A DNA stretch of 43,073 nucleotides, from positions 1 through 43,073 of the forward strand of contig DATKZS010000229.1 in NCBI GenBank assembly GCA_035527835.1, in the 5' to 3' direction. Below, piece by piece: positions 5,025 through 42,953 of the stretch. Made by a program: the position numbers and the translations under genes. The notes below the pieces were generated by a model that saw nothing but the letters and a program-made list of their open reading frames with translations, had not been told where the DNA came from and ran no database searches. The stretch is from a bacterium (lineage in GTDB: Bacteria; RBG-13-61-14; DATKZS01). Numbering within the stretch: position 1 is the stretch's first letter; each line of letters starts with the position of its first letter.

Positions 5025-5096
5025 GCAACCAGCCTTTCCTCGGGGGCAAGCCCGGGGGAGAAGCGTAAAGTATTCAGTATCCGGCCAAGAAATTTT

Positions 5097-5171
5097 TTAA
5101 CAAGGATATTCAGGATGTTCAGGATCAAGAAAACCAGGGATCATCCTGGTAATCCTGAATATCCTTGTTAA
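5097..5171. repeat. Long imperfect hairpin, 'caggat' tandem-unit class (H1); homologous to the copy at 41369-41428
   Basis: Left arm aacaaggatattcaggatgttcaggat pairs with the reverse complement of atcctggtaatcctgaatatccttgtt. The flank gaaaagattattaacaagg is also shared with the 41357-41375 copy. Confidence 0.6.
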
Positions 5172-5224
5172 TAATCTTTTCATTTTATATTATTATCCTG
5201 GTGATAAAACCAGTTCTAGATTTA

Positions 5225-7711: not shown

Positions 7712-8014
7712 GGACATTACATTTAATCGTTCAATCATTTCCGGCAATTCTCGTGACGGCTTGGTCCCGGCCATCCATCATCCCGGCCTTTTTTCTCCGG
7801 CTCTCTTCCCAATTGTCGTCATCCCCCGCCTCTGCCGTGTGGCGGATCACTTTCAAACCCGGTAAAACCAGGTGGGCGCCGTATTACCGTTTCAGGTTCC
7901 TGGGCGAAGCAGTAGGCTCTCCAGGCACACACCGCGGCAAGGGACAGCTCCCTTAGTGAATTTAATGGTTCGAAAAGTCTGCCACCCAATCACGAACAGC
8001 GCAGGGGATGATAC

Positions 8015-8715: not shown

Positions 8716-8788
8716 GGTGGAGGGGACACTCTTGTCCCCTCACATCGGGCCGACAGGAGTGTCGGCCCCACCTGGTGTCGGCCCCACC
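8716..8788. repeat. REP-like compound palindrome, copy A (GGTGG-GGGGACACTCTTGTCCCC-...-GGCCGACAGGAGTGTCGGCC-CCACC, plus a duplicated right end)
   Basis: Two hairpins with GACA-N4-TGTC cores that are reverse complements of each other, bracketed by GGTGG/CCACC. The same architecture recurs at 12304, 23761, 25006 and 39591. Confidence 0.6.
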
Positions 8789-8834
8789 TAATGATTTTTT
8801 TCCGCCTCGTGCTCCTGTGATATGCTCATGACTT

Positions 8835-10385: not shown

Positions 10386-10408
10386 ATCTTGTCCACAATA
10401 TGCACAAG

Positions 10409-10527
10409 AAAAACGCCAAGGCGCCAAGAACGCCAAGGACCGCCAAAAATGCTTGAATCGCCCGGAAGACGGATGGATATGGTATTAACAACATAATCCT
10501 TGGCGTTCTTGGCGCCTTGGCGTTTTT
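10409..10527. repeat. Long hairpin with perfect 31-bp inverted arms built from tandem 'gccaag' units (H2), ~57-nt loop
   Basis: aaaaacgccaaggcgccaagaacgccaagga ... tccttggcgttcttggcgccttggcgttttt are exact reverse complements. Intergenic between the CrtI-like gene and pepF. Confidence 0.7.
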
Positions 10528-10557
10528 CCGGTCTGCTTAGTTAGGAGCAAAAAGAGA

Positions 10558-12279: not shown

Positions 12280-12303
12280 TACTGATGGGAGCCCGGAAGA
12301 GAG

Positions 12304-12416
12304 GTGGAGCCCGACACTCTTGTCGGGCGGCGTCGCCAAGGTCGAGGGGCGCGGGACAAGAGTGTCCCGCCCACCATAAGGTTGGCACTTGCGGGGACAG
12401 GAGTGTCCCCGCCACC
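12304..12416. repeat. REP-like compound palindrome, copy B (full unit 12304-12373 plus extra half-unit 12390-12416)
   Basis: ggtggagcccGACACTCTTGTCgggc...gcgGGACAAGAGTGTCCcgcccacc, then ggggacaggagtgtccccgccacc. Ends at the GH51 start codon. Confidence 0.6.
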
Positions 12417-14078
12417 ATGATGGAGGGGAGGATGGATAAAGCAAAGAAGATGGAACTGACGCGGCGCGGCTTTATTTCCGCGGGCGCGGTGATGGCCGCG
12501 GGCCCGCTGGTGATCGCGCCGCCGAAGACGGAAGCGGCGGCCGGCCCGGTGAGCGCGAGCGCCGTGATCGAGCGCGATCCGTTGCATGACCTGCCCCGCA
12601 CCCAGTACAGCCATTTCATCGAGCACCTCGGGGAATGCGTCAAGGGCGGCATCTGGGCGGAGGGCGAGAGCGATGACATGTTGCTGGGCGGGGTGCGGCA
12701 TGAGCTGGTGGATGCCATGCGCTCGGTGCGTCCGGCGCTGATCCGGTATCCGGGCGGCTGCTTCGCGGACGGGTATCACTGGCAGGACGGGATCGGTCCG
12801 CGCGGATCTCGGCCGCGGCGGCCGAACCAGGCCTGGGGCAAACTGGGGCCGCTGGTCGGACCCGAGGAGGACAACCACTTCGGCACGGACGAGTTCATGG
12901 CGCTGTGCCAGGCGGTGGGCGCGGGGCCGATGCTCACGGTGAACGTGGGCTCGGGCACGGCGGCGGAGGCCGCGGACTGGGTCGAGTATTGCAACGGTCC
13001 CGTGGACACCAGGTGGGGAGCGGAGCGGGCGAAGAACGGACATCCGGAGCCGTACCAGGTCAAGTACTGGTTCGTGGGCAACGAGATTTTCGGCTGGCAC
13101 GAGATCGGCCACCAGCCGCCGCCGGTGTACGTCAAGACCTTCCGCGCCTACTCCGAGGCCATGCGCGCGAAAGATCCCACGATCAAGCTGATCGCGGTGG
13201 GCGGGAACTTCTCCGGCATTACCGACGCCAATAAAATCATGCTCAGCGGCGCGGGCGACATCATGGATTATTTATCCATCCACCAGTACGTTCCGCCGGC
13301 GAACCTGGAAAACACCATCCGGTTCCAGACCCTGGGCCTGCAGCGCGCCCGCGGCAAGCACGTGTATTACGACGTCATGGGGACGCTCAAGCGGATGGAG
13401 GAGTTCATTCAGGAGAACGTGCGCGACGTCAACGCCTATTCGCCTTCCGGGAAAAAGGTCCCGCTCGCTTTTGACGAGTGGAACCTGTGGTTCAGCTTCG
13501 CGGCGGACGTGATCCGGGCCAACTATTGCCTGCGCGACGGGTTGTGGACCGCGGGCATGCTTAACCTGTTCCACCGCCACGCTCCGGAGTTGCCCATCGC
13601 CAACATCGCGCAGATGGTGAACTGCCTGGGCATCATCACCTCCACGAAAGAGGGGACGTTTTTAACGCCTTCCGCCCTGGCCTTCAAGCTCTACACGGAG
13701 CGCGCGGGCGAGTCGTTCCTGCCGAGCCGGGTGGAGTGCCCGCCGCTGCCGCACGTCTCGGAGCTCCCGGCCGTTGACCTCTCCGCCACCCGGAGCGGAG
13801 ACCGGCTCGCGCTGTTCCTGGTCAACCGGCATTACAGCTCCGAAGCAAGGGTCAGCGTCTCATTGGACGGGATGGACGCCGCGCCCGCGGCCGAGCGCCG
13901 GGAGATGGGCCACCGCAACCCGGCCCAGTACAACACGTTCAAAAAACCGGACGCGGTGCGGATCGAGTACGCGCCGGAGAGTTTGTCGGTGACCGCGACC
14001 AAGGGGGGCAGCGGGTTCGATCTCCGCCTCGCCCCGCACTCGCTGACCTGTATCGAGCTCCGGGTGAAGGACATATGA
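12417..14078 (+). CDS. GH51 alpha-L-arabinofuranosidase with twin-arginine (TAT) signal peptide
   Basis: TAT motif TRRGFISAG. Blocks RYPGGCFADGYHWQDGIGP, NHFGTDEFM and WFVGNEIFG (catalytic acid GNE) match GH51 AbfA. The listed ORF start at 12015 is an upstream artefact; start options are 12417, 12420 or 12432. Confidence 0.85.
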   Translation: MMEGRMDKAKKMELTRRGFISAGAVMAAGPLVIAPPKTEAAAGPVSASAVIERDPLHDLPRTQYSHFIEHLGECVKGGIWAEGESDDMLLGGVRHELVDAMRSVRPALIRYPGGCFADGYHWQDGIGPRGSRPRRPNQAWGKLGPLVGPEEDNHFGTDEFMALCQAVGAGPMLTVNVGSGTAAEAADWVEYCNGPVDTRWGAERAKNGHPEPYQVKYWFVGNEIFGWHEIGHQPPPVYVKTFRAYSEAMRAKDPTIKLIAVGGNFSGITDANKIMLSGAGDIMDYLSIHQYVPPANLENTIRFQTLGLQRARGKHVYYDVMGTLKRMEEFIQENVRDVNAYSPSGKKVPLAFDEWNLWFSFAADVIRANYCLRDGLWTAGMLNLFHRHAPELPIANIAQMVNCLGIITSTKEGTFLTPSALAFKLYTERAGESFLPSRVECPPLPHVSELPAVDLSATRSGDRLALFLVNRHYSSEARVSVSLDGMDAAPAAERREMGHRNPAQYNTFKKPDAVRIEYAPESLSVTATKGGSGFDLRLAPHSLTCIELRVKDI

Positions 14079-14100: not shown

Positions 14101-17871
<3,771 letters not shown>

Positions 17872-18003
17872 GTGCCCATGAGAGTGGGATGCAGCCTCCG
17901 GCTGGAGACTCTTCTTTTGGAGTGCGGACTTCGACGAGCTCAGTCGAGTCGCGGCACGACGCCGCTTTCATTGGGGCCGAGTGCGAGGGAAATATTTTTT
18001 CAA

Positions 18004-18075
18004 CTGCGGAGTCGCGGAGGCCGCGGAGAAGAAAATATCATAATAATCTTTCCGCGCGCTCCGCGACTCCGCGGT
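18004..18075. repeat. Long hairpin, 'gcggagtcgcggag' tandem-unit class (H3)
   Basis: ctgcggagtcgcggaggccgcggagaagaaa pairs with the reverse complement of tttccgcgcgctccgcgactccgcggt. Sits between the convergent kinase and SPFH gene ends. Confidence 0.55.
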
Positions 18076-18174
18076 AATATTCAGCGCTAATGGAGTTGCA
18101 AGGCCAATGAAAGCGCGGTCGTGCCCGCGCACTTCAAATGGACGGCCTCCCGCTTTATTCTTCGGGCGGGATTA

Positions 18175-19473
18175 TCATTGTCCTCCGGCCGGCCCGGGAG
18201 CGGGCGCGGGAGGATTGGCCGGCTGGTTCAGCGGTGCGGCGGTCTTATTGAGCTCGATGGCCTTGATCGCGCCGTAGTTCTGGATGAGCTCGTTCAAGTC
18301 GAGCACGTTCATGGCGCCCTGGCCGGGCACGATGATTATCTTTTTGCCCTGGATGGCCTGGGTGATGGCGAGGGACACCTGCTGGCTGCCGCCGGGTCCG
18401 GTGAGCGCGGCGGTCTGGGCGGCGATGCCGTCGGCCAGGGTGTTGTATTTGATTTCCTGGGCCTTGGCCTCCATGGTCTTGGCGGCGAGCTCGGCGTCGG
18501 CTTCCTGGGTGACCTTGCCGGCGCGGCCATTGGCCAGAGCGATCATGGAGTCGGCCTCGCCGCGGGCGTTGTTGATCTTGGTCTGCTTCTTTTGAACGGC
18601 TTCGAGTTGGCGGGAGATGTTCTCCTTGCGTCGCTCCTCGGCCACGCGCTTCTTGTTGAGCACGGCTTCATACTCGGGGTGGATGGCCACGGTGGGCGCG
18701 GACAAGGACACGATCTCCAGGCCGTAGTCGCCGAGCCTCTGGTTCAGCTCGTCAATGGCGCAGTTCATTTTCTCCTTGACCTCGGCGCCCGCTTCGGGGC
18801 CGGACTCCTGGATGACCTTTCCTTCCAGGGCCAAGGTGCGGTCCTCGGCGCGCAGGATCTGCTTGGAATCCAGGCCGCCGAGCCAGGAGCGGACGGCGCC
18901 GCGCACCATGGACTCGACGGTAAGGTCCAGCTCGTCGAGCCCGTTTTTCATTTCAAAGGTCTCGGCCACCAGGTATGCATCCTTGTCCTTGATGTGATAG
19001 CTCACGATGATGTCCACCCAGGCGTCGTTGCCGTCGGCGGTCTTGATGCGTACGCTCTGGTCCTTGGACGGGCGGACGTGCGTGACGATCTTGAATCTCT
19101 CCGTCCGCGCGGCCTGCTGCTCCACCTGCTTGAGCTGCTCCTCGGGGGATTGCGGCATCCGTGCCTGCTGCTCCTTGGCCGCGGCCTGTTCCCTGACCTT
19201 GCCCAGGGAACCGGTCTCGCGCAGGGCCTCCTCGGCTTCCTCCATCATCTTGAGGATGCGGTTGGTGCGGGGCAGCTTGTAGAATGTCACGGCCCAGGGC
19301 AAATAGCCCCAGTACCCGGTAGTCAAGGATTCATGTTGGATCCCGTTCACGAGGGGGACATTGATTACGCGCACGCCGACCTCGTTGGACTCGACCTTGG
19401 TGCAGGCGGCGGATGCGATCAGAATGAGCGCCAACAACAACGGCATGATCCGCTTCATGGCATTACCTTTCAT
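18175..19473 (-). CDS. SPFH/band-7 domain lipoprotein (HflC/prohibitin-like)
   Basis: Lipobox signal LIASAAC, then an SPFH domain and a long Ala/Gln/Glu-rich coiled-coil C-terminal region. 432 aa. Confidence 0.8.
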   Translation of the reverse strand: MKGNAMKRIMPLLLALILIASAACTKVESNEVGVRVINVPLVNGIQHESLTTGYWGYLPWAVTFYKLPRTNRILKMMEEAEEALRETGSLGKVREQAAAKEQQARMPQSPEEQLKQVEQQAARTERFKIVTHVRPSKDQSVRIKTADGNDAWVDIIVSYHIKDKDAYLVAETFEMKNGLDELDLTVESMVRGAVRSWLGGLDSKQILRAEDRTLALEGKVIQESGPEAGAEVKEKMNCAIDELNQRLGDYGLEIVSLSAPTVAIHPEYEAVLNKKRVAEERRKENISRQLEAVQKKQTKINNARGEADSMIALANGRAGKVTQEADAELAAKTMEAKAQEIKYNTLADGIAAQTAALTGPGGSQQVSLAITQAIQGKKIIIVPGQGAMNVLDLNELIQNYGAIKAIELNKTAAPLNQPANPPAPAPGPAGGQ

Positions 19474-21628: not shown

Positions 21629-22954
21629 TCACTGGCCGGCTGGCGTCGGACCCGCCTTCTCCACCCGGCACACGAGCTTATTCACGGACTTTATCATGAC
21701 TTTCTCCCCTTTGGCAACAGGGGAATCGGACTCGGCGTTCCAGTACTCGCCGTGGACGAAAATCTTGCCGCCTTCCGGGCCGATGTCGGTCTCGGCCATG
21801 GCGACTTCGCCGGCCATTTCCTCTCTGCCCGTCATCACCTTCTGGCGGTGGGCCTTGAGCACGGCGCCGCCGAAGACCAGCAGCACGGTGGTGACGAACG
21901 CGATGATGGGAAGGATCACGGACCATGACGGTGACACGTTGGGCACCTCCTCGGTGTGAAAGAGCATGAGCGAGCCGAAGATGAAGCAGACGACGGCGGC
22001 GGCGGTGAGCAGTCCGTGGCTCACGATGAACAGCTCCGCCACCAGGAGCCCGAAGGCGAGGAGGATCAAGAGGATGCCCATGTAGTTGACGGGGAGCTGG
22101 GGCGCGACCAGGAAGATCAGGATGCAGCAGGCGCCGAGCACTCCGGGCACGATCATGCCGGGGTTCTTGAACTCGATGGCGATGCCGAGAACGCCGAGCA
22201 GGAACAGGATGAGCAGGAAGTTCGGGTTGTTGAGGACGTGCTGAAGGCGCTGCGGCGTGGTCATCTCGGGGCGTTCGATCTCGGCGCCCTTGGTGTCGAG
22301 CTCCACCGTGCTTCCGGCCTTGAGGGTCACGACGCGGCCGGGCAGGAATTCATTGAGCAGGTCGTCGAGGTTTTCGGCCATTCCGTCCACCACCTTGAGC
22401 TTGACGGCCTCCTGGGCGGAGATGGACTGGCTCTCGGACACGGCCGTCTCGGCCCAGTCGGCGTTTCTGCCCCTCACCTCGCAGATCGAGCGCACCCAGG
22501 CCACCGTGTCGTTGGTGGCCTTTTCCATCATCACGTCCTCTTTCGGGATCGGCTCGTACTTGACTCCGAAGGGCATCATGACCGGATGGGCCGCGCCGAT
22601 GTTGCTCCCCGGCGCCATGACCGCGACGTGGCCGCCCAGGGTGACCATCATGCCGGCGGAGGTGGCGGAGGCGCCGGCGGGGGACACGTAGACCACCACC
22701 GGCACGTCGGAGTCGAGGAAGTCCTGCACGATCTGCTTGGTCGAGTCGAGCATCCCTCCCGGCGTGTCCAGCTCGATGATCAGGGCCTGGGAGCCGGTTT
22801 TTTTGGCGGTGTCCAGCGAGCTCTTCACGTACCCGCTCACGCTGTTGTCAATGATGCCGTCAATCTTGATGACCTGCACCGTCTTGGCGAGCGCGCCGTG
22901 GCAGAAAAGCAAGGCCATCAGGCCGGACAGCGCCGCGGTTCTCGCGCGCATCAT
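21629..22954 (-). CDS. NfeD-family membrane-bound serine protease (stomatin-operon partner; ClpP-like domain, TM segments, C-terminal OB-fold)
   Basis: Signal peptide, then a ClpP/SppA-like protease region (GGMLDST, VVYV..GASATSAGM), hydrophobic segments and a C-terminal beta domain. Immediately upstream of the stomatin gene. 441 aa. Confidence 0.85.
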   Translation of the reverse strand: MMRARTAALSGLMALLFCHGALAKTVQVIKIDGIIDNSVSGYVKSSLDTAKKTGSQALIIELDTPGGMLDSTKQIVQDFLDSDVPVVVYVSPAGASATSAGMMVTLGGHVAVMAPGSNIGAAHPVMMPFGVKYEPIPKEDVMMEKATNDTVAWVRSICEVRGRNADWAETAVSESQSISAQEAVKLKVVDGMAENLDDLLNEFLPGRVVTLKAGSTVELDTKGAEIERPEMTTPQRLQHVLNNPNFLLILFLLGVLGIAIEFKNPGMIVPGVLGACCILIFLVAPQLPVNYMGILLILLAFGLLVAELFIVSHGLLTAAAVVCFIFGSLMLFHTEEVPNVSPSWSVILPIIAFVTTVLLVFGGAVLKAHRQKVMTGREEMAGEVAMAETDIGPEGGKIFVHGEYWNAESDSPVAKGEKVMIKSVNKLVCRVEKAGPTPAGQ

Positions 22955-23760: not shown

Positions 23761-23814
23761 GGTGGGCGGGACACTCCTGTCCCGCGCCCGCCCGACAAGA
23801 GTGTCGGGCCCACC
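23761..23814. repeat. REP-like compound palindrome, copy C
   Basis: ggtgggcGGGACACTCCTGTCCCgcgcccgcCCGACAAGAGTGTCGGGcccacc, in the divergent intergenic region. Confidence 0.6.
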
Positions 23815-25005: not shown

Positions 25006-25062
25006 GGTGGAGGGGACACTCCTGTCCCCTGCGCTTGGGCCGACGGGAGTGTCGGCCCCACC
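25006..25062. repeat. REP-like compound palindrome, copy D
   Basis: ggtggaGGGGACACTCCTGTCCCCtgcgcttgGGCCGACGGGAGTGTCGGCCccacc, between convergent gene ends. Confidence 0.6.
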
Positions 25063-26231: not shown

Positions 26232-26288
26232 AGCCGATGGCGGGGGAGGGATCAAATGGTGAGCGGTGGGCGGGCGATAGGATCTCGC

Positions 26289-26352
26289 ACAGAGACACGG
26301 AGACACAGAGATTTCTTTTTTTCCATACTTCCTCCGTGTCTCTGTGTCTCGG
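26289..26352. repeat. Long hairpin, 'cagagaca/cggagaca' tandem-unit class (H4)
   Basis: cacagagacacggagacacagagat ... ctccgtgtctctgtgtctcgg, with a 15-nt T-rich loop. In the divergent intergenic region. Confidence 0.55.
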
Positions 26353-26456
26353 CGCGAAACCAATTGATCAATGGCGGGCAGTCCCGCTTCATGGGGAACG
26401 CCCGTTTGCCCCGCCGTATATTATTCCGTTATCATGAGAGGCGGCGGCATCATGCC

Positions 26457-27947
26457 ATGAACGAGACCAAGGACAGGCCGGAGGCGGAGGAGGCCGAGGC
26501 GGACCCGCGGGCGGCGGAGCGGGAGGCGTGGATCGAGCGGCTGCGCCTTGACGGCAAGTACCGCATGTTGTTCGAGCTGGAGATCCTGTTGAAGGGCCTG
26601 GACCGCTTCTTCAACGTCGAGAACCTTCCGCTCGCCAACATGCAGCAGGTGATTGCGCTCAATTTCGTGGACGAGCTGGAGATCATCCTGCAGTTCGTGG
26701 ACCGGGTGGTGGAGCTTTCGGGCGTGCTGCTCGACGCCTCGCGGCAGGAGGACTACCAGTTCAAGTATTACATCGAGACCAAGCTCCTGGGCGACTACGA
26801 GCGCTCGCGCTGGCGGGAGGCGGTGCTGGAGCAGGAGAACCCGGAGGCCAGCCTGTTCGTGCTCTACGGGACCTTCTTGAACCTGCGCGAGATCCTGCGC
26901 GGACTCACTCAGCTTAAAGTAGTGCCCTACACCATCTTCTTCAACACCGGCAACCTGATCAGCCGCGAGATGCTGGGCAACCGCTACTTCAACCCGTCCC
27001 GCCCGGTCGAGTTCCGGCCCGAGTTCGACAAGGTCAATAACAAGCGCATCGGAATGATCGTCCGGGCCGTCAAGGACGCCCAGCTCCAGCGCAACGCGTC
27101 CATCGTGGTCCTCGCCTTCAACCGGCTGTTGCAGTACCTGCGCTTCATTGACCCTCGGAGCGAGTCCATCGAGCACCTGAAAAGCTCGCTCCTCTTCTTC
27201 GCCCTCATCCACTCCGAGTCGAAATACCTGATGGAGTTCATGGAAACCAACCTGCCCGACCGGCTCGCGGGCAACCCGGACAAAATGCGCGGGCCCTTCA
27301 CCGAGGCCTGCGACTCGCTCTCCTTCCAGCTCCAGATGGAGCTCAAGAAGATCCACGCCGGCGAGCTCCTCAACCTGGCCAAGCAGAAAAAGCTCGAGAG
27401 CGTGAAGACGGCCGTCGAGAACAGCCACGGTATCCTGATGAACTTCTTCCAGCAGAGCGTGATCCAGATCCTCAAGGTGTTCGAGTCGGGGCTGGCGGGG
27501 GAGGAGATCTTCCCGGTGTTCATCTCGCGCCGGAAGCAGAGCCTGAAGCTCCGGGAGGACCTGGCGGTGTTCCGCTCCATGATGGAGAAATTCGAGGAGA
27601 TCACCGAGACCACGGAGGCCGGGATGCACCTGGACACGTATCTGAAATACCTGGTCCTGCAGAAGGGCTTCGTGGCCAGGATGCGGCGCGGCACCATGCC
27701 GCTGATGCGCTACCACGACCTGGTGGAGTTCGAGAAGTACCTGAAGTTCGTCGAGGGCCTGGGCCTCGACGACCTGCATATCATGGACAAGCTCGACAAG
27801 TTCAAGATGGAATCCAAGTTCTTCAAGATCCTGGTCGAGACCACCTTAGGCCACATTGACAACCGCTCCGAGCTGCAGGGAGAGCCGCTGGACAAGGCCA
27901 GGGTGGAGCGCAGGCTGAAGCGGTTCGTGGTGGAGTACCTGAAATAG
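26457..27947 (+). CDS. Hypothetical all-alpha protein, 496 aa, no recognised domain
   Basis: Real-protein amino-acid composition (K/E/F/L/N/Y-rich), unlike the antisense frame. Acidic N-terminus. GCGGCGGCAT upstream of the ATG. Confidence 0.6.
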   Translation: MNETKDRPEAEEAEADPRAAEREAWIERLRLDGKYRMLFELEILLKGLDRFFNVENLPLANMQQVIALNFVDELEIILQFVDRVVELSGVLLDASRQEDYQFKYYIETKLLGDYERSRWREAVLEQENPEASLFVLYGTFLNLREILRGLTQLKVVPYTIFFNTGNLISREMLGNRYFNPSRPVEFRPEFDKVNNKRIGMIVRAVKDAQLQRNASIVVLAFNRLLQYLRFIDPRSESIEHLKSSLLFFALIHSESKYLMEFMETNLPDRLAGNPDKMRGPFTEACDSLSFQLQMELKKIHAGELLNLAKQKKLESVKTAVENSHGILMNFFQQSVIQILKVFESGLAGEEIFPVFISRRKQSLKLREDLAVFRSMMEKFEEITETTEAGMHLDTYLKYLVLQKGFVARMRRGTMPLMRYHDLVEFEKYLKFVEGLGLDDLHIMDKLDKFKMESKFFKILVETTLGHIDNRSELQGEPLDKARVERRLKRFVVEYLK

Positions 27948-28005
27948 AAGCTAGAATATAGAAGAAGAGGCCGCGGCGCTTCAATTCTATATTCTATCTT
28001 CTGGA
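27947..28005. repeat. Imperfect hairpin of 'aatataga' units (H5) between the unknown gene and hemL
   Basis: gaagctagaatatagaagaag ... cttcaattctatattctatcttc, plus an extra gattctatattc copy. Confidence 0.4.
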
Positions 28006-28033
28006 TTCTATATTCTTTTTGAAGGAGTTCGCG

Positions 28034-29332: not shown

Positions 29333-29459
29333 GAACCGCCAAGACGCCAAGGCCGCCAAGAAAAAATAGATAAAAATATGGAAGGACGGAAACGCAACTC
29401 CGTCCTTCTTTATTAAATCCAATAAATTCTTTCTTGGCGGCCTTGGCGTCTTGGCGGTT
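29333..29459. repeat. Long hairpin with perfect 30-bp inverted arms of tandem 'gccaag' units (H6), with a nested small hairpin in the loop
   Basis: aaccgccaagacgccaaggccgccaagaaa ... tttcttggcggccttggcgtcttggcggtt are exact reverse complements. Loop contains gaaggacggaaacgcaactccgtccttc. Sits between the convergent hemL and galT ends. First 19 nt are identical to H10. Confidence 0.7.
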
Positions 29460-39105: not shown

Positions 39106-39118
39106 GGAATTATTTTTG

Positions 39119-39198
39119 CACGCAAAGGCGCAAAGACCGCAAAGAATTGAAAAATTTTTATTCTAAATTTCTGCTTTGCGGTCTTTGCGCCTTTGCGA
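39119..39198. repeat. Long hairpin of tandem 'cgcaaag' units (H7), a sequence variant of the gccaag class
   Basis: cgcaaaggcgcaaagaccgcaaagaa ... ttctgctttgcggtctttgcgcctttgcg. Sits between the convergent ends of the 37513 gene and the fmdB-like gene. Confidence 0.65.
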
Positions 39199-39219
39199 GA
39201 AATAAAATCTCCCATCCTC

Positions 39220-39590: not shown

Positions 39591-39667
39591 CGGTAGGACA
39601 GACATTCTTGTCTGTCCGGCGGTAGACAGGCAAGAATGTCGGGACAGACAAGAATGTCTGTCCTACC
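39591..39667. repeat. REP-like compound palindrome, copy E (AT-richer variant: three GACA-N-TGTC cores, GGTAG/CTACC brackets)
   Basis: ggtagGACAGACATTCTTGTCTGTCcggcggtagACAGGCAAGAATGTCGGGACAGACAAGAATGTCTGTCctacc. Confidence 0.55.
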
Positions 39668-39677
39668 CCGCCGGTCA

Positions 39678-40340
39678 TCATTTATTTTTAAGCAGCGCCC
39701 GATGCACCACGGCGTTCACGGCGAGGGCCACGGCGAGCAGGATGACGGCCAGGACGGCGGAGCGGGCGAACTCGCCCTTTGACGTTTCCAGGGCGATGGC
39801 GGTGGTGATGGTGCGGGTGTAGCCCCGGATGTTGCCGCCGAGCATGATCACGCTGCCGACCTCCGAGATCACCCGCCCGAACCCGGCGGCCGTCGCGCCC
39901 AGGATGCCGGTCCTGGCCTCCTTGAGCACGGCCAGGTCCGCCTGCCAGTGCCCGGCCCCCAGCGTCAGCGCCGTCGCGCGCACCCTTCTGTCCACCCCGT
40001 CCACCGCCGCGTAGGTCATGGCGGTGATGATGGGCAAGGCCAGGATCACCTGCCCGATGATGACGGCGGTGGGCGTAAACAGCAGTCCGAGCCCGCCCAG
40101 CACCCCGCTCCGGCCTACGATGGAATAGACCAGCAGCCCGATGACCACGGTGGGCAGGCTGAGCATCGTGTTCATCAGGGTCACCAGGTGCCGCTTGCCG
40201 GCGAACTCGCGCGCCGACACCGCGAGTCCCGCCGGCACGGCCAGCAGCGCCGCCACGAAGGTCGCGATCAGCGAGATGCGGAACGACAGTCCCGCGATCT
40301 GCCAGACCTCGGGGTCGAATATCATCCTGAGCTCGGACAT
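39678..40340 (-). CDS. tupB: Tungstate/molybdate-type ABC transporter permease (TupB-like)
   Basis: 220-aa, 5-6 TM permease with an ABC EAA-like loop. Immediately downstream of the TupA-like binding protein. Confidence 0.7.
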   Translation of the reverse strand: MSELRMIFDPEVWQIAGLSFRISLIATFVAALLAVPAGLAVSAREFAGKRHLVTLMNTMLSLPTVVIGLLVYSIVGRSGVLGGLGLLFTPTAVIIGQVILALPIITAMTYAAVDGVDRRVRATALTLGAGHWQADLAVLKEARTGILGATAAGFGRVISEVGSVIMLGGNIRGYTRTITTAIALETSKGEFARSAVLAVILLAVALAVNAVVHRALLKNK

Positions 40341-40401: not shown

Positions 40402-41232
40402 TTATTTCTCCATGGCCGGTATGGCGGCGGGATGGAACAGGACCTGGCCCTCGGCCTGGAACGACCCGATCCTGGCCTGGCCCTCCGGGCTCGTGAGCCA
40501 CGCGATCAGGAGCATGGCGTCCATGTAGTTCGCGTCCGGATACCGCGCCGGGTTGGTCGCGATCATGGCATAAGGGTTGTCCAGGGCCGGGTCGTTTTCG
40601 CAAACGATGTCCAGGTCCAGGGTCTTTTTCAGCGCCAGGTACGTGCCGCGGTCGGAAAGGGTGTAGGCCTTCTTCTCGTGGGCCATGCGTAAAGCTTCCT
40701 CCATGCCCTGGCCGATCTCGAGGTAGCGGTCCGCCGCCGGCTTGCCATTGACCAGCGGCCAAAGCTGCAACTCCTTCTTGTTCGTGCCCGAGTCGTCGCC
40801 GCGCGAGATGAACACCGCGTTCTTATTGTCCGTGAGCAGCCCAAGCGCGTCCTTGAGCGACGCCGCGCTTTTGATCCCGGCCGGGTCGGAAGGGGGGCCC
40901 ACGATCACGAAGTCGTTCTTCATGAACGGCCGCCGGTTCACCCCGAACCCCGCATCCACGAACTTCATCTCCGCCTCCGGCGCGTGCACCATCACCACGT
41001 CAACGTCGCCGTTCTCCGCGAGCTTCAGCGCCTTGCCCGTGCCCACCGCGATCACCTGCACCTCGATCCCGTACTCCTTCTCGAAAACCGGCAGCAGGTA
41101 ATCGAGCAGGCCCGAGCTCTGGGTGCTGGTCGTGGTCGCCATCTTCAGCACCCGCTTCCCCTTGGCCGCCGCATGGAGCGCGAACGCCATGAAGAGACAT
41201 ACCATTGCCGCGAGAACTGTTTTCCGGTTCAT
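40402..41232 (-). CDS. tupA: Tungstate ABC transporter substrate-binding protein (TupA/WtpA-like)
   Basis: Signal peptide. KMATTTSTQSSGLLDYL matches the TupA anion-binding TTTST..SGL signature. 276 aa. Confidence 0.8.
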   Translation of the reverse strand: MNRKTVLAAMVCLFMAFALHAAAKGKRVLKMATTTSTQSSGLLDYLLPVFEKEYGIEVQVIAVGTGKALKLAENGDVDVVMVHAPEAEMKFVDAGFGVNRRPFMKNDFVIVGPPSDPAGIKSAASLKDALGLLTDNKNAVFISRGDDSGTNKKELQLWPLVNGKPAADRYLEIGQGMEEALRMAHEKKAYTLSDRGTYLALKKTLDLDIVCENDPALDNPYAMIATNPARYPDANYMDAMLLIAWLTSPEGQARIGSFQAEGQVLFHPAAIPAMEK

Positions 41233-41278: not shown

Positions 41279-41507
41279 CGCAGATGAACGCGGATGAACG
41301 CAGATAAGAGTTGATTATTAGAACCGGTTTCATAACCAGGACAAACATCTCGAATGAAAAGATTATTAACCAGGATATTCGGGATTTTCAGGATGATCCC
41401 CGGTTTTTTAATCCTGAAGATCCTTGTTAAAAAATTCTTGTCTGGTTTATGAAACCGCCTCTAATAATATTTTTATTTATCTGCGTTCATCCGCGTTCAT
41501 CTGCGGC
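41279..41507. mobile_element. MITE-like composite: ~60-bp imperfect terminal inverted repeats (outer 27 bp built from 'gatgaacgc' units) flanking an AT-rich core that contains hairpin H9
   Basis: ccgcagatgaacgcggatgaacgcagataagagttgattattagaaccggtttcataacc pairs with the reverse complement of ggtttatgaaaccgcctctaataatatttttatttatctgcgttcatccgcgttcatctgcgg. Lies 47 bp upstream of the tupA start. Confidence 0.55.
41369..41428. repeat. Hairpin H9 ('caggat' class), a degraded homologue of H1 at 5097-5171
   Basis: accaggatattcgggattttcaggat ... atcctgaagatccttgtt. The left flank atgaaaagattattaaccaggatattcgggat is ~90% identical to the H1 flank. Confidence 0.5.
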
Positions 41508-41530: not shown

Positions 41531-41580
41531 AAAAAAGCCCGTCCCGCGTGTCAACGGGACGGGCCGGCCGTCCTTTTTTC
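41531..41580. terminator. Bidirectional intrinsic terminator (A6-GCCCGTCCCG-loop-CGGGACGGGC-...T6)
   Basis: 10-bp GC stem with an A-run upstream and a T-run downstream. Confidence 0.5.
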
Positions 41581-42021
41581 TCCTTTCCAAGCGCGGGGGG
41601 TCGCGAGGTTTCCCTCACGGCCGAATAGTCGCGTTCCCTGGCCTTGTCTCGGGCGGTAGGCGTGAGCGACTCGGAGATGCTCGGAGTATAACGGAATGCC
41701 CGCCCCAAAGCAAACCCGTACGCCCGGCAAGGGTATCGGGCCTGCCGTCATTGCCCCGCCGCTCCCCTGCTCTTTACCTTTTTACCCAAGGTCCGGTGGC
41801 GCGGGCCTATAAAAAGAGCCGCGTCGCTCTTTAATTATTCAATAACGGAAGGATTGGGCTGCCGCGAGTGGGACGCAATATTGGGAACGGCCCTTGTTCC
41901 TCTGAAAAGATCAAGGATTTGGCAAGGATAGCTGCCGGGGCGATGCCGGCGACGGATTGGCACTATGTTTGCTACATAACAAAACCATAATTTACTAAAT
42001 TAAACGCCCAAGGGAAACTCC

Positions 42022-42642: not shown

Positions 42643-42752
42643 TCCTAAACTTGAATTACAAAAAAACGCGCCCGCAATGACCCGGCCCCGACCTCGGCCG
42701 GGTCATTCATTTTTATAAATTGACTAAGTGCTGTCCAAAATAAACGGACCGG

Positions 42753-42953
42753 AGAACCGCCAAGACGCCAAGAGCGCCAAGGATTATTTTTTAACAAGAT
42801 TTTAAGAGGGCTTGGGTGCGAATGTTTCTTGCTTGGCGCTCCCGTCGGCCGGTTCGCCAAGCCGGTTGGGGCCAACGCTCCGGAGCTGTTCTTTGCCGGG
42901 CCGCCAATAAACATCAGGTTTTACTTGGCGGTCCTTGGCGCTCTTGGCGTCTC
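42753..42953. repeat. Long hairpin of tandem 'gccaag' units (H10) with ~137-nt loop; left arm shares 19 identical nt with H6
   Basis: gagaaccgccaagacgccaagagcgccaaggat ... acttggcggtccttggcgctcttggcgtctc. The loop carries further gccaag-like remnants. Confidence 0.6.

Follow-up and report, generated by a model that had tools for sequence, protein, structure and literature searches.

The intervening sequence (IVS) of the Coxiella burnetii 23S rRNA has a 28-bp stem formed by its terminal inverted repeats, and its 5' end holds a tandem run of three GACAGAT heptamers, or of two in some strains, ahead of the open reading frame (ORF) for S23p (PMC4990558). RNase III cuts this stem, with the 5' cut falling at the start of the first repeat (PMC4990558). 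IVSs are regarded as selfish, horizontally transferred elements whose loop can hold a small ORF, as in Coxiella and Leptospira, and an older proposal viewed them as mobile elements, with the ORF serving their mobility (PMC4990558). Here we consider intergenic hairpins with tandem heptamers in their arms from a bacterial contig of 43,073 nt (DATKZS010000229.1 of assembly GCA_035527835.1; hereafter the window, meaning the whole stretch analyzed), with the hairpin H3 (18003-18075) as the point of departure. We propose, with a confidence falling somewhat short of even, that H3 belongs, as one of many copies, to a widespread superfamily of intergenic palindromes defined by their sequence: ORF-less selfish elements resembling IVSs and miniature inverted-repeat transposable elements (MITEs), symmetric at the DNA level and read by a putative protein.

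The two arms of H3 (18003-18027 and 18051-18075), of 25 nt each, are 88% complementary and enclose an A+T-rich loop of 23 nt. Each arm is made up of three units with a period of 8-9 nt; the 5' arm reads TGCGGAG-T-CGCGGAG-GC-CGCGGAG, and the 3' arm is its complement. The predicted RNA fold reaches -50.7 kcal/mol, compared with -24.2 +/- 3.3 kcal/mol for shuffled sequences, and the opposite strand folds nearly equally well; of all the hairpins described below, only H5 is assigned to a strand. H3 is situated between two convergent genes: on the + strand a kinase-WD40 gene (14101-17871), and on the - strand an SPFH/Band7 gene (18175-19473) that is the last in a set of three. The intergenic segment 17872-18175 is identical in two ENA assemblies and in one JGI assembly from another sample; hence, the assembly artifact considered in an earlier, sequence-only reading of this DNA can be excluded for H3.

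That reading had pointed to H3 and two further loci, H4 and H5, as hairpins with tandem units in their arms, and all three are indeed strong hairpins built of tandem 7-9 nt units (folding z scores of -8.1, -7.3, and -4.5, respectively). The excess over chance that it implied is also real: the window contains 20 inverted-repeat clusters, with at least two tandem units per arm in 8 and at least three in 4, as against means of 4.97, 0.09, and 0 in 100 dinucleotide shuffles. The shuffle comparison that the earlier reading had named as a possible refutation thus did not refute it. The density of tandem-unit hairpins (0.19 per kb) likewise exceeds that in 1.36 Mb around hemL in other bacteria (0.014 per kb, about 14-fold lower), a control set of loci from a HemL scan of genome contigs, which come mostly from other phyla and include no relative closer than 60%. 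Thus, a nonrandom class of hairpins with tandem-unit arms exists in the window.

The units of these hairpins had been taken as unrelated to each other, a claim that did not survive comparison of the words. The words CGCGGAG (H3), CACAGAG and CACGGAG (H4), CGCCAAG, and CGCAAAG all fit the pattern C-R-C-N-R-A-G and are connected by single substitutions, and we define family A as those hairpins whose arms fit three such words. The corresponding 24-nt arm template, CRCNRAG-N-CRCNRAG-NN-CRCNRAG, is matched with at most one mismatch by nine arms in the window, compared with 0.03 in shuffles, and these include both arms of H3 with one mismatch each; the spacing of 1 nt and then 2 nt between words is common to H3 and the GCCAAG and GCAAAG hairpins. 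A search with flexible spacers recovered 34 arms in 1.75 Mb of nonviral loci, as against 0-1 in shuffles, with the spacer pairs (1,2) in 20, (2,3) in 7, (1,1) in 4, and (2,2) in 3, and the reverse order in none. The arm module of about 30 nt consists of a short flank, in many cases TTCAC, GAAC, or TAAC, and then the three heptamer words, whose spacers measure n and n+1 nt, usually 1 and then 2, with the longer one beside the loop. Arm pairs within 200 nt of each other also have a marked polarity, with the purine-rich word coming first in 110 and the reverse order seen in 12. The interior is A+T-rich and of variable length, from 6 nt up to a whole small gene, and the stems in the window extend over 24-34 bp. 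Judging from the words themselves, the H3, H4, GCCAAG, and GCAAAG hairpins represent variants of a single sequence template and not convergent independent inventions, and the seven unit sequences once counted in the window reduce to about three families, namely, A (CRCNRAG), B (ACAGGAT), and the TAGAAT type of H5.

The window holds six family A hairpins, none of which encloses an ORF. Besides H3, these include a CGCCAAG-G-CGCCAAG-AA-CGCCAAG hairpin between two + strand genes (10408-10528), with arms of 32 nt that are 100% complementary and a loop of 57 nt; a CGCCAAG-A-CGCCAAG-GC-CGCCAAG hairpin between the convergent hemL and galT genes (29334-29459), whose loop holds an inner terminator-like hairpin (29381-29408); and a CGCAAAG-G-CGCAAAG-AC-CGCAAAG hairpin, again between convergent genes (39106-39212). 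A fourth element, CGCCAAG-A-CGCCAAG-AG-CGCCAAG (42727-42952), has arms at 42758-42781 and 42924-42949 around an interior of 142 nt, and its 3' arm is without the outermost unit; it has in common with the element at 10408 the flank GACCGGARAAM beside the arms. H4 (26285-26357), with 1+1 spacing, lies between the divergent starts of a PALP gene (- strand) and a gene for a 496-aa protein (+ strand). Its words are CACAGAG-A-CACGGAG-A-CACAGAG and CTCCGTG-T-CTCTGTG-T-CTCGGCG, and its arms (26285-26310 and 26332-26357) pair either over 26 nt at 85% or, when shifted by one unit, perfectly over 15 nt.

Family A is not confined to this lineage. In the comparison loci and contigs, to which we refer by L-numbers, its arms were found in more distant relatives within the lineage (L089, L098, L099, and L116) and in L073 and L070 (both labeled Acidobacteriota), L022 (labeled Chloroflexi), and L069, where HemL is 55-58% identical to that of the window. 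They were also found in plasmids of Cyanobacteria (Nostoc and Calothrix), Gemmatimonadota (Gemmatirosa), and Bacteroidota (Bacteroides and Bernardetia) and in Sphingomonas. Scans of IMG/VR with specific words returned 62, at least 120, and 23 stretches (more than 200 in all), compared with an expectation of about 0.2 per scan, which is our own rough estimate from the size of the collection; the listed stretches (1.83 Mb) hold 581 arms, with CGCGGAG, the word of H3, as the first word in 26. Within the lineage the distribution is patchy, with no family A hairpin in 55 kb of the relatives L086-L088 and many in L102 and L103. The 42727-42952 element has a 95.6% identical copy at positions 27-252 of L102, which possesses one more unit and an unrelated right-hand flank (the left flank there comprises 26 nt), and the copies in L210 have both arms and loop sequence in common. 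A first metagenome scan with the Band7 protein gave no matches, and Rfam returned for the hairpins only subthreshold, microRNA-precursor-like chance matches.

The history of individual copies is best seen at the H3 site itself. Two relatives whose Band7 protein is 81-82% identical to that of the window, L337 and L338, have a hairpin at the same site, and L337 also retains a recognizable end of the convergent kinase gene together with a similar loop and 3' flank. The L337 hairpin reads CGCAGAG-A-CGCAGAG-GG-CGCAGAG, a 19-nt loop, and CTCTGCG-CC-CTCTGCG-T-CTCTGC, whereas that of L338 is a 7-nt GGAGCGA version. Between H3 and L337, 16 of 24 stem positions are unchanged, and at 4 of 24 both partners have changed in a way that preserves pairing; in three of these four cases the N position of a word is affected, once in each of the three words, from G:C to A:T. 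Since the same change is seen in all three word pairs of L337, the words show concerted, pair-preserving evolution across six copies. More distant relatives, at about 50% identity, are without a hairpin at this site, and one of them has a plain terminator. Next to hemL, a relative with 92% identical HemL (L089) has a CGCAAAG hairpin 3' of the gene, where the window has the GCCAAG hairpin; the hemL-side flanks of L089 cannot be aligned, and the orthology of these two hairpins is therefore uncertain. Whole units also differ between copies, as between 42727-42952 and L102 and in the 41371 copy of family B. Hence, of the generative process suggested from the sequence alone, we retain a homogenizing, palindrome-preserving process, to which both the concerted change in L337 and the gain or loss of units speak, and set aside the convergence of independent inventions, given that there is one template.

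H3 is itself nested in an outer inverted repeat (17953-18125; arms 17953-17974 and 18104-18125) with which it has a common center at 18039. Each outer arm overlaps a small terminator-like hairpin that is followed by TTTCATTGG and faces one of the convergent genes. This outer repeat was not found in the orthologous spacer of L337. At this site the part that both genomes share, and the older one, is the family A hairpin, whereas the outer layer is either newer or was lost in L337. Two Logan contigs, L084 and L085, both end at exactly 18104, the inner edge of the outer repeat, and the nested palindromes around H3 appear to interrupt short-read unitigs.

The distance from arm to arm in family A ranges from 6 nt to more than 1 kb. 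Most loops measure 6-200 nt, and a minority (200-600 nt) enclose one small ORF, of assorted kinds; copies in L210 have an inner terminator-like mini-hairpin in the loop, as does 29334-29459 in the window. In L099, GCAAAG arms bracket a gene for a GxxExxY protein (TIGR04256, PD-(D/E)XK superfamily). With further GxxExxY genes located by tblastn against plasmids, family A arms were found beside five of the nine examined, namely, those of Bacteroides finegoldii, Bernardetia, Gemmatirosa, Sphingomonas, and L099. In B. finegoldii the arrangement is TTCAC-CACAGAG-GA-CGCAGAG-GA-CACGGAG, the ORF, and CTCTGTG-AC-CTCTGTG-TC-CTCTGTG-GTGAA; in Gemmatirosa a complete CGCAGAG hairpin stands on either side of the gene; and in Sphingomonas there is a 5' arm only. 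The other four are flanked by different repeats. The GxxExxY genes of L132 (Prevotella nigrescens) and L134 (Fusobacteria ZRK30) are accompanied by direct, not inverted, repeats of 20-70 nt, as if a cassette boundary had been duplicated. At L099 121-1643, four GCAAAG arrays punctuate a GxxExxY gene and a gene with an HNH domain, and one inverted pair spans the whole HNH ORF (about 950 nt); we rejected this HNH protein as a mobilizing enzyme, as its sequence, with a match to the HNH domain alone, resembles that of a restriction-type nuclease and not that of a transposase. The description of family A in terms of its template, polarity, spacer rule, wide distribution, concerted change, and GxxExxY flanks is well supported.

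The CAGGAT hairpins form a second group, family B, represented by two copies in the window. The composite repeat at 5073-5218, between rny and a ymdB-like gene, has a core hairpin (5097-5171) of AAGGAT/CAGGAT units repeated three times with a 9-nt period. The other copy (41315-41465) is the inner part of a triple nested palindrome (41279-41505) in the 5' untranslated region (UTR) of tupA, with a middle inverted repeat (41314-41468) and outer arrays CGCAGATGAA at 41279-41305 and 41479-41505; the latter (CGCAGAT+GAA) look, by their words, like a variant of family A with 3-nt spacers. Five family B copies, these two and three in L103, align over about 95 nt inclusive of loop and flanks, and some have a further outer palindromic layer in common. 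By this alignment, the CAGGAT hairpins are copies of a separate dispersed repeat of about 95 nt, and the assertion that simple copying cannot account for the hairpins thus fails for them, with their conserved loop and flanks being those of plain dispersed-repeat copies. Nearly identical copies of a related ACAGGAT form, TGACAGGATTAACAGGATTTACAGGAT, are found in L102/L103, in a metagenome-assembled genome (MAG) of Thermodesulfovibrionia (L032), and in plasmids of Spirosoma oryzicola. We also considered the CAGGAUG words of family B as CsrA sites, akin to the repeats of CsrB, and dropped this candidate, as the motif is base-paired within the hairpin and no GGA rule applies to family A.

H5 (27946-28016, + strand) belongs to neither family. 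Its units are 7-nt ATAGAAG/TAGAAT words; its arms (27946-27963 and 27985-28002) pair over 18 nt at 94%; the hairpin runs over the stop codon of the 496-aa gene and, with its U-rich tail, stops 19 nt short of the start of hemL. Homologs at the same site upstream of hemL in L086 and L090 have three covarying pairs and sense-strand G.U pairs, and the hairpin is absent in L087 and L088. H5 is thus a lineage-specific conserved hairpin, which may have a terminator or attenuator role.

Family A is also not the sole tandem-unit family in these genomes, since hairpins with other words are found at L102 1144-1358 and 7150-7398, L073 3189-3322 and 12359-12500, and L001 13673-14952. Their words are ACGGAT, GTTTGTG/CACAAAC (L102), GGCTAGAG (L073, with as many as about 10 units in an arm), and GTTTAAAC/GTTTGAAC. 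In addition, the window has an ordinary family resembling repetitive extragenic palindromes (REPs), with GGTGG-nnn-GACACTCCTGTC units in inverted pairs at 8716-8790, 12303-12420, 23761-23814, and 25006-25062 and a variant at 39592-39667; a REP-like doublet upstream of the UDG gene, in an extra segment of about 150 nt, is absent from the orthologous region of L337, a presence/absence difference. Other features of the window include a 6S RNA gene (7819-8010, - strand; full-length match to Rfam RF00013, 96 bits) beside a ZapA-like small gene and a molybdenum cofactor (Moco)/tungsten riboswitch aptamer (41564-41688, - strand), which has a terminator of its own (about 41560-41528) and precedes tungstate transporter genes that resemble tupA-tupB (40402-41232 and 39678-40340, - strand); the triple palindrome of 227 nt sits between this terminator and the tupA start codon. 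A JGI contig of the same population (L083) is without about 71-72 nt (22188-22258) inside an NfeD gene (21629-22954, - strand), probably an in-frame strain variant. The protein of about 500 aa encoded immediately before hemL in the window (26457-27947, + strand) and also in L086-L088 has no Pfam or NCBIfam match; it has homologs in the 33 other loci that were recovered and is a conserved partner specific to the lineage (loci L086-L122).

Whether the palindromes are maintained as DNA or as RNA bears directly on their interpretation. In hairpins between co-directional ORFs, G.U-type mismatches number 31 on the sense and 27 on the antisense strand (p = 0.69); this absence of asymmetry gives no sign of selection on the structure of one transcript. 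H3 has no U-tract on either strand (3' flanks GGTAATATTCAG on + and AGTTGAAAAAAT on -), and in a scan with a terminator consensus H3, H4, and the outer stems were not called, with calls restricted to the small neighboring or inner hairpins. The 41279-41505 composite, by its position between the riboswitch terminator and the tupA start, must be transcribed through. These elements are accordingly not intrinsic terminators of the usual form, with a G+C-rich stem, a loop of 3-8 nt, and a U-tract immediately after it, and the tupA 5' UTR composite, the position of H4 at divergent starts, the missing U-tract of H3, and the G.U balance together speak against efficient termination as their general role. 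The evidence favors a DNA-level palindrome that is tolerated in transcripts.

Taking these findings together, we envisage the elements as selfish or near-neutral palindromes that would spread within and between genomes, phages included, by means of a putative protein reading the invariant positions C1, C3, A6, and G7 of the word. Once inserted, an element would persist at its site, and its symmetry could be kept by DNA-level conversion among the six words, in which neighboring words slip against each other and the two arms serve as templates in turn. Any change at one of the free positions (R2, N4, R5, or a spacer) would then sweep through all the words, leaving different "units" at different loci. 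Such elements would be cotranscribed into mRNAs as long hairpins and, by analogy, probably act as RNase III substrates or 3'-end stabilizers and not as efficient terminators. The copies in the window would be ORF-less miniatures of fuller versions that elsewhere hold a small ORF in the loop, with GxxExxY observed in this position and S23p of the IVSs suggested by analogy. The mobility of family A, the recognizing protein, the conversion mechanism, and the fate of the RNA are thus what we infer from the pattern. A bolder formulation, which we consider unlikely, would see in family A the miniatures of one ancient superfamily of palindromic mobile elements that is active to this day and crosses phyla via phages, with GxxExxY/S23p cassettes as its full-length members, a dedicated arm-reading protein specific for both structure and sequence, and a built-in conversion of the six words.

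Several observations weigh against the reading of these palindromes as selfish elements. The loops and spacers of the family A copies in this window are mutually unrelated, unlike those of a young MITE family; no direct repeat (target-site duplication) was found at the boundaries of the five aligned family B copies; and no transposase, REP-associated tyrosine transposase (RAYT), or other mobilizing gene was detected among the window ORFs scanned, which comprise most but not all of its genes, nor was an insertion sequence (IS) seen. The 1.83 Mb of arm-rich viral stretches listed contain no GxxExxY gene, with assorted small ORFs flanked there instead; GxxExxY is therefore rejected as an obligatory partner; the protein is not needed in cis and is a frequent passenger or partner. 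The rule of n and n+1 spacers is hard to square with homogenization by simple duplication of units, and the count of (1,2) spacing in the viral set is biased by the query pattern. Both the taxon labels of the MAGs and the "viral" status of the IMG/VR contigs were taken as given. Finally, that the window, L337, and L338 all keep a hairpin beside the same gene end fits a host function equally with selfish persistence.

This last point leads to the main rival explanation, which we regard as doubtful, namely, that the hairpins are RNA punctuation selected by the host, serving as bidirectional or U-tract-poor terminators, RNase III sites, or 3'-end stabilizers, with the words reflecting a conserved RNA-binding or RNA-cleaving enzyme. 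Such a role would suit the placement of family A in the window, where five of the six hairpins come after the 3' end of one gene or more and three are flanked by convergent genes, and it would account for the hairpin that the window, L337, and L338 all have beyond the 3' end of the Band7 gene and for the one that the window and L089 have beyond that of hemL. The canonical small terminator hairpins enclosed by 29334-29459 and the L210 copies, the covariation and sense-strand G.U pairs of H5, and the RNase III cleavage of the analogous Coxiella IVS stem (PMC4990558) are also in keeping with it. However, structure alone needs neither three identical words nor a fixed polarity or spacer rule, and the close relatives L086-L088 and L339-L341 manage without such hairpins. 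Punctuation likewise does not predict the equality of sense and antisense G.U-type mismatches (31 versus 27), the location of H4 at divergent gene starts or of 41279-41505 inside a riboswitch-controlled 5' UTR, or a 23-nt loop without a U-tract on either strand in H3.

Two further explanations can be named, and we consider both of them very improbable. According to the first, each hairpin arose locally from arbitrary sequence by slippage and hairpin-templated repair, with the shared architecture being a mutational end state. The concerted word changes, the alternative pairing registers of H4, the words outside family A (H5, GGCTAGAG in L073, and GTTTGTG in L102), and the differences in unit number between copies and between Coxiella strains (PMC4990558) are all expected from such a process. 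It does not, however, explain why heptamer template, flank, polarity (110 versus 12), and spacer order recur across phyla and phage contigs, why word identity between unrelated genomes extends to the level of hexamers, or why family B copies have loop and flanks in common; as the template keeps its polarity and its spacer rule from the window to distant phyla and phage contigs, slippage on arbitrary sequence cannot be the origin of the class. The second takes the arms as operator-like arrays of sites for an oligomeric DNA-binding protein (ribbon-helix-helix, partition-type, nucleoid, or insulator), in which the potential to form a hairpin is incidental. The invariant positions in a 7-nt word repeated every 8-9 bp in direct and inverted orientation, the DNA-level symmetry, and the existence of solo arms would be natural in such arrays. 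Against this, the variable positions differ even within one genome, so that one protein must tolerate CGCCAAG, CGCGGAG, and CACAGAG; the arms stand anywhere from 6 nt to more than 1 kb apart; there is no linked candidate gene; and the near-perfect complementarity of the arms, spacers included, would be superfluous.

If our proposal of a selfish palindrome superfamily is true, a 24-nt rule (three C-R-C-N-R-A-G words, spacers of n and n+1, purine arm first) would identify a class of intergenic palindromes across many poorly studied phyla and their phages and link it to the unexplained rRNA intervening sequences and to the multicopy GxxExxY gene family. Many spurious small ORFs in metagenome annotation would also be explained, and the elements would offer a compact natural system for concerted evolution inside a palindrome, in which six words change together while pairing is kept. 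The search for an arm-reading protein would be directly testable.

Family A can be compared with several known systems. REPs and their composites (REPINs and BIMEs), which RAYT (TnpA-REP) mobilizes, are similar in being short, G+C-rich extragenic palindromes that form long hairpins as inverted pairs and occur in multiple, nested, cotranscribed copies without target-site duplication; the 43 kb of the window contain six family A and two family B hairpins with such inverted doublets. They differ in having a GTAG/CGTC tag, which is missing at the arm ends here, and one imperfect palindrome in place of three tandem heptamers per arm; REP families are also lineage specific, while the family A arm sequence spans phyla, and no RAYT gene accompanies it among the window ORFs scanned. 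With MITEs such as Correia/NEMIS, whose hairpin transcripts can be cleaved by RNase III, there are parallels in the conserved inverted-repeat ends, variable interior, intergenic location, and multiple copies, and terminal inverted repeats are shared by copies in the arms and flank of the 10408 and 42758 elements, the 95 nt of family B, and the L210 copies. In contrast to MITEs, there is no target-site duplication (five family B copies), no parent IS with matching ends was found, the ends are internally repetitive, and the words evolve in concert inside each copy. Integron attC sites were considered and rejected, as the flanks GAGAAC, TTCAAC, or TTCAC and GTTTATT or GGTAATA misfit the core RYYYAAC/GTTRRRY and the neighbors are housekeeping genes.

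Heptameric short tandemly repeated repetitive (STRR) arrays are known in cyanobacteria, where they can lengthen a helix such as P12 of RNase P RNA. Both these and the TAACTGA heptamer repeats are tandem 7-nt intergenic words, with one word occurring in distant phyla by a transfer mechanism that is not known (PMC4679880). Those arrays are mostly contiguous direct repeats of other words in up to tens of copies, whereas family A has about three words per arm, separated by spacers and mostly with an inverted partner, and thus falls outside this class. Another relevant process, known from mutagenesis work in Escherichia coli, is the correction of quasipalindromes by template switching, which makes the arms of an imperfect inverted repeat complementary again. 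It supplies what the concerted, pair-preserving changes require and would explain the maintenance of the palindromes, though not the word template or its dispersal.

The sequence-only reading knew of no described repeat class with just these properties. Neither topic searches nor literal repeat strings brought up an account of the template in the open-access literature, which is weak evidence of absence; the architecture as such has a precedent in the tandem heptamers beside the IVS stem repeats of Coxiella (PMC4990558). Family A and that IVS are alike in their long stem from terminal inverted repeats with tandem heptamers (three words and 24-34 bp in the window), and the IVS word GACAGAT differs little from CACAGAG and from the CGCAGAT found at 41279-41305. 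The window elements are distinguished by their location between protein-coding genes instead of in rRNA helices, by 1-2 nt spacers between the words, and by having no ORF, and the ORF seen between family A arms elsewhere is GxxExxY and not S23p. On anatomical analogy, the Coxiella-type IVS is nonetheless the closest described counterpart of these palindromes.

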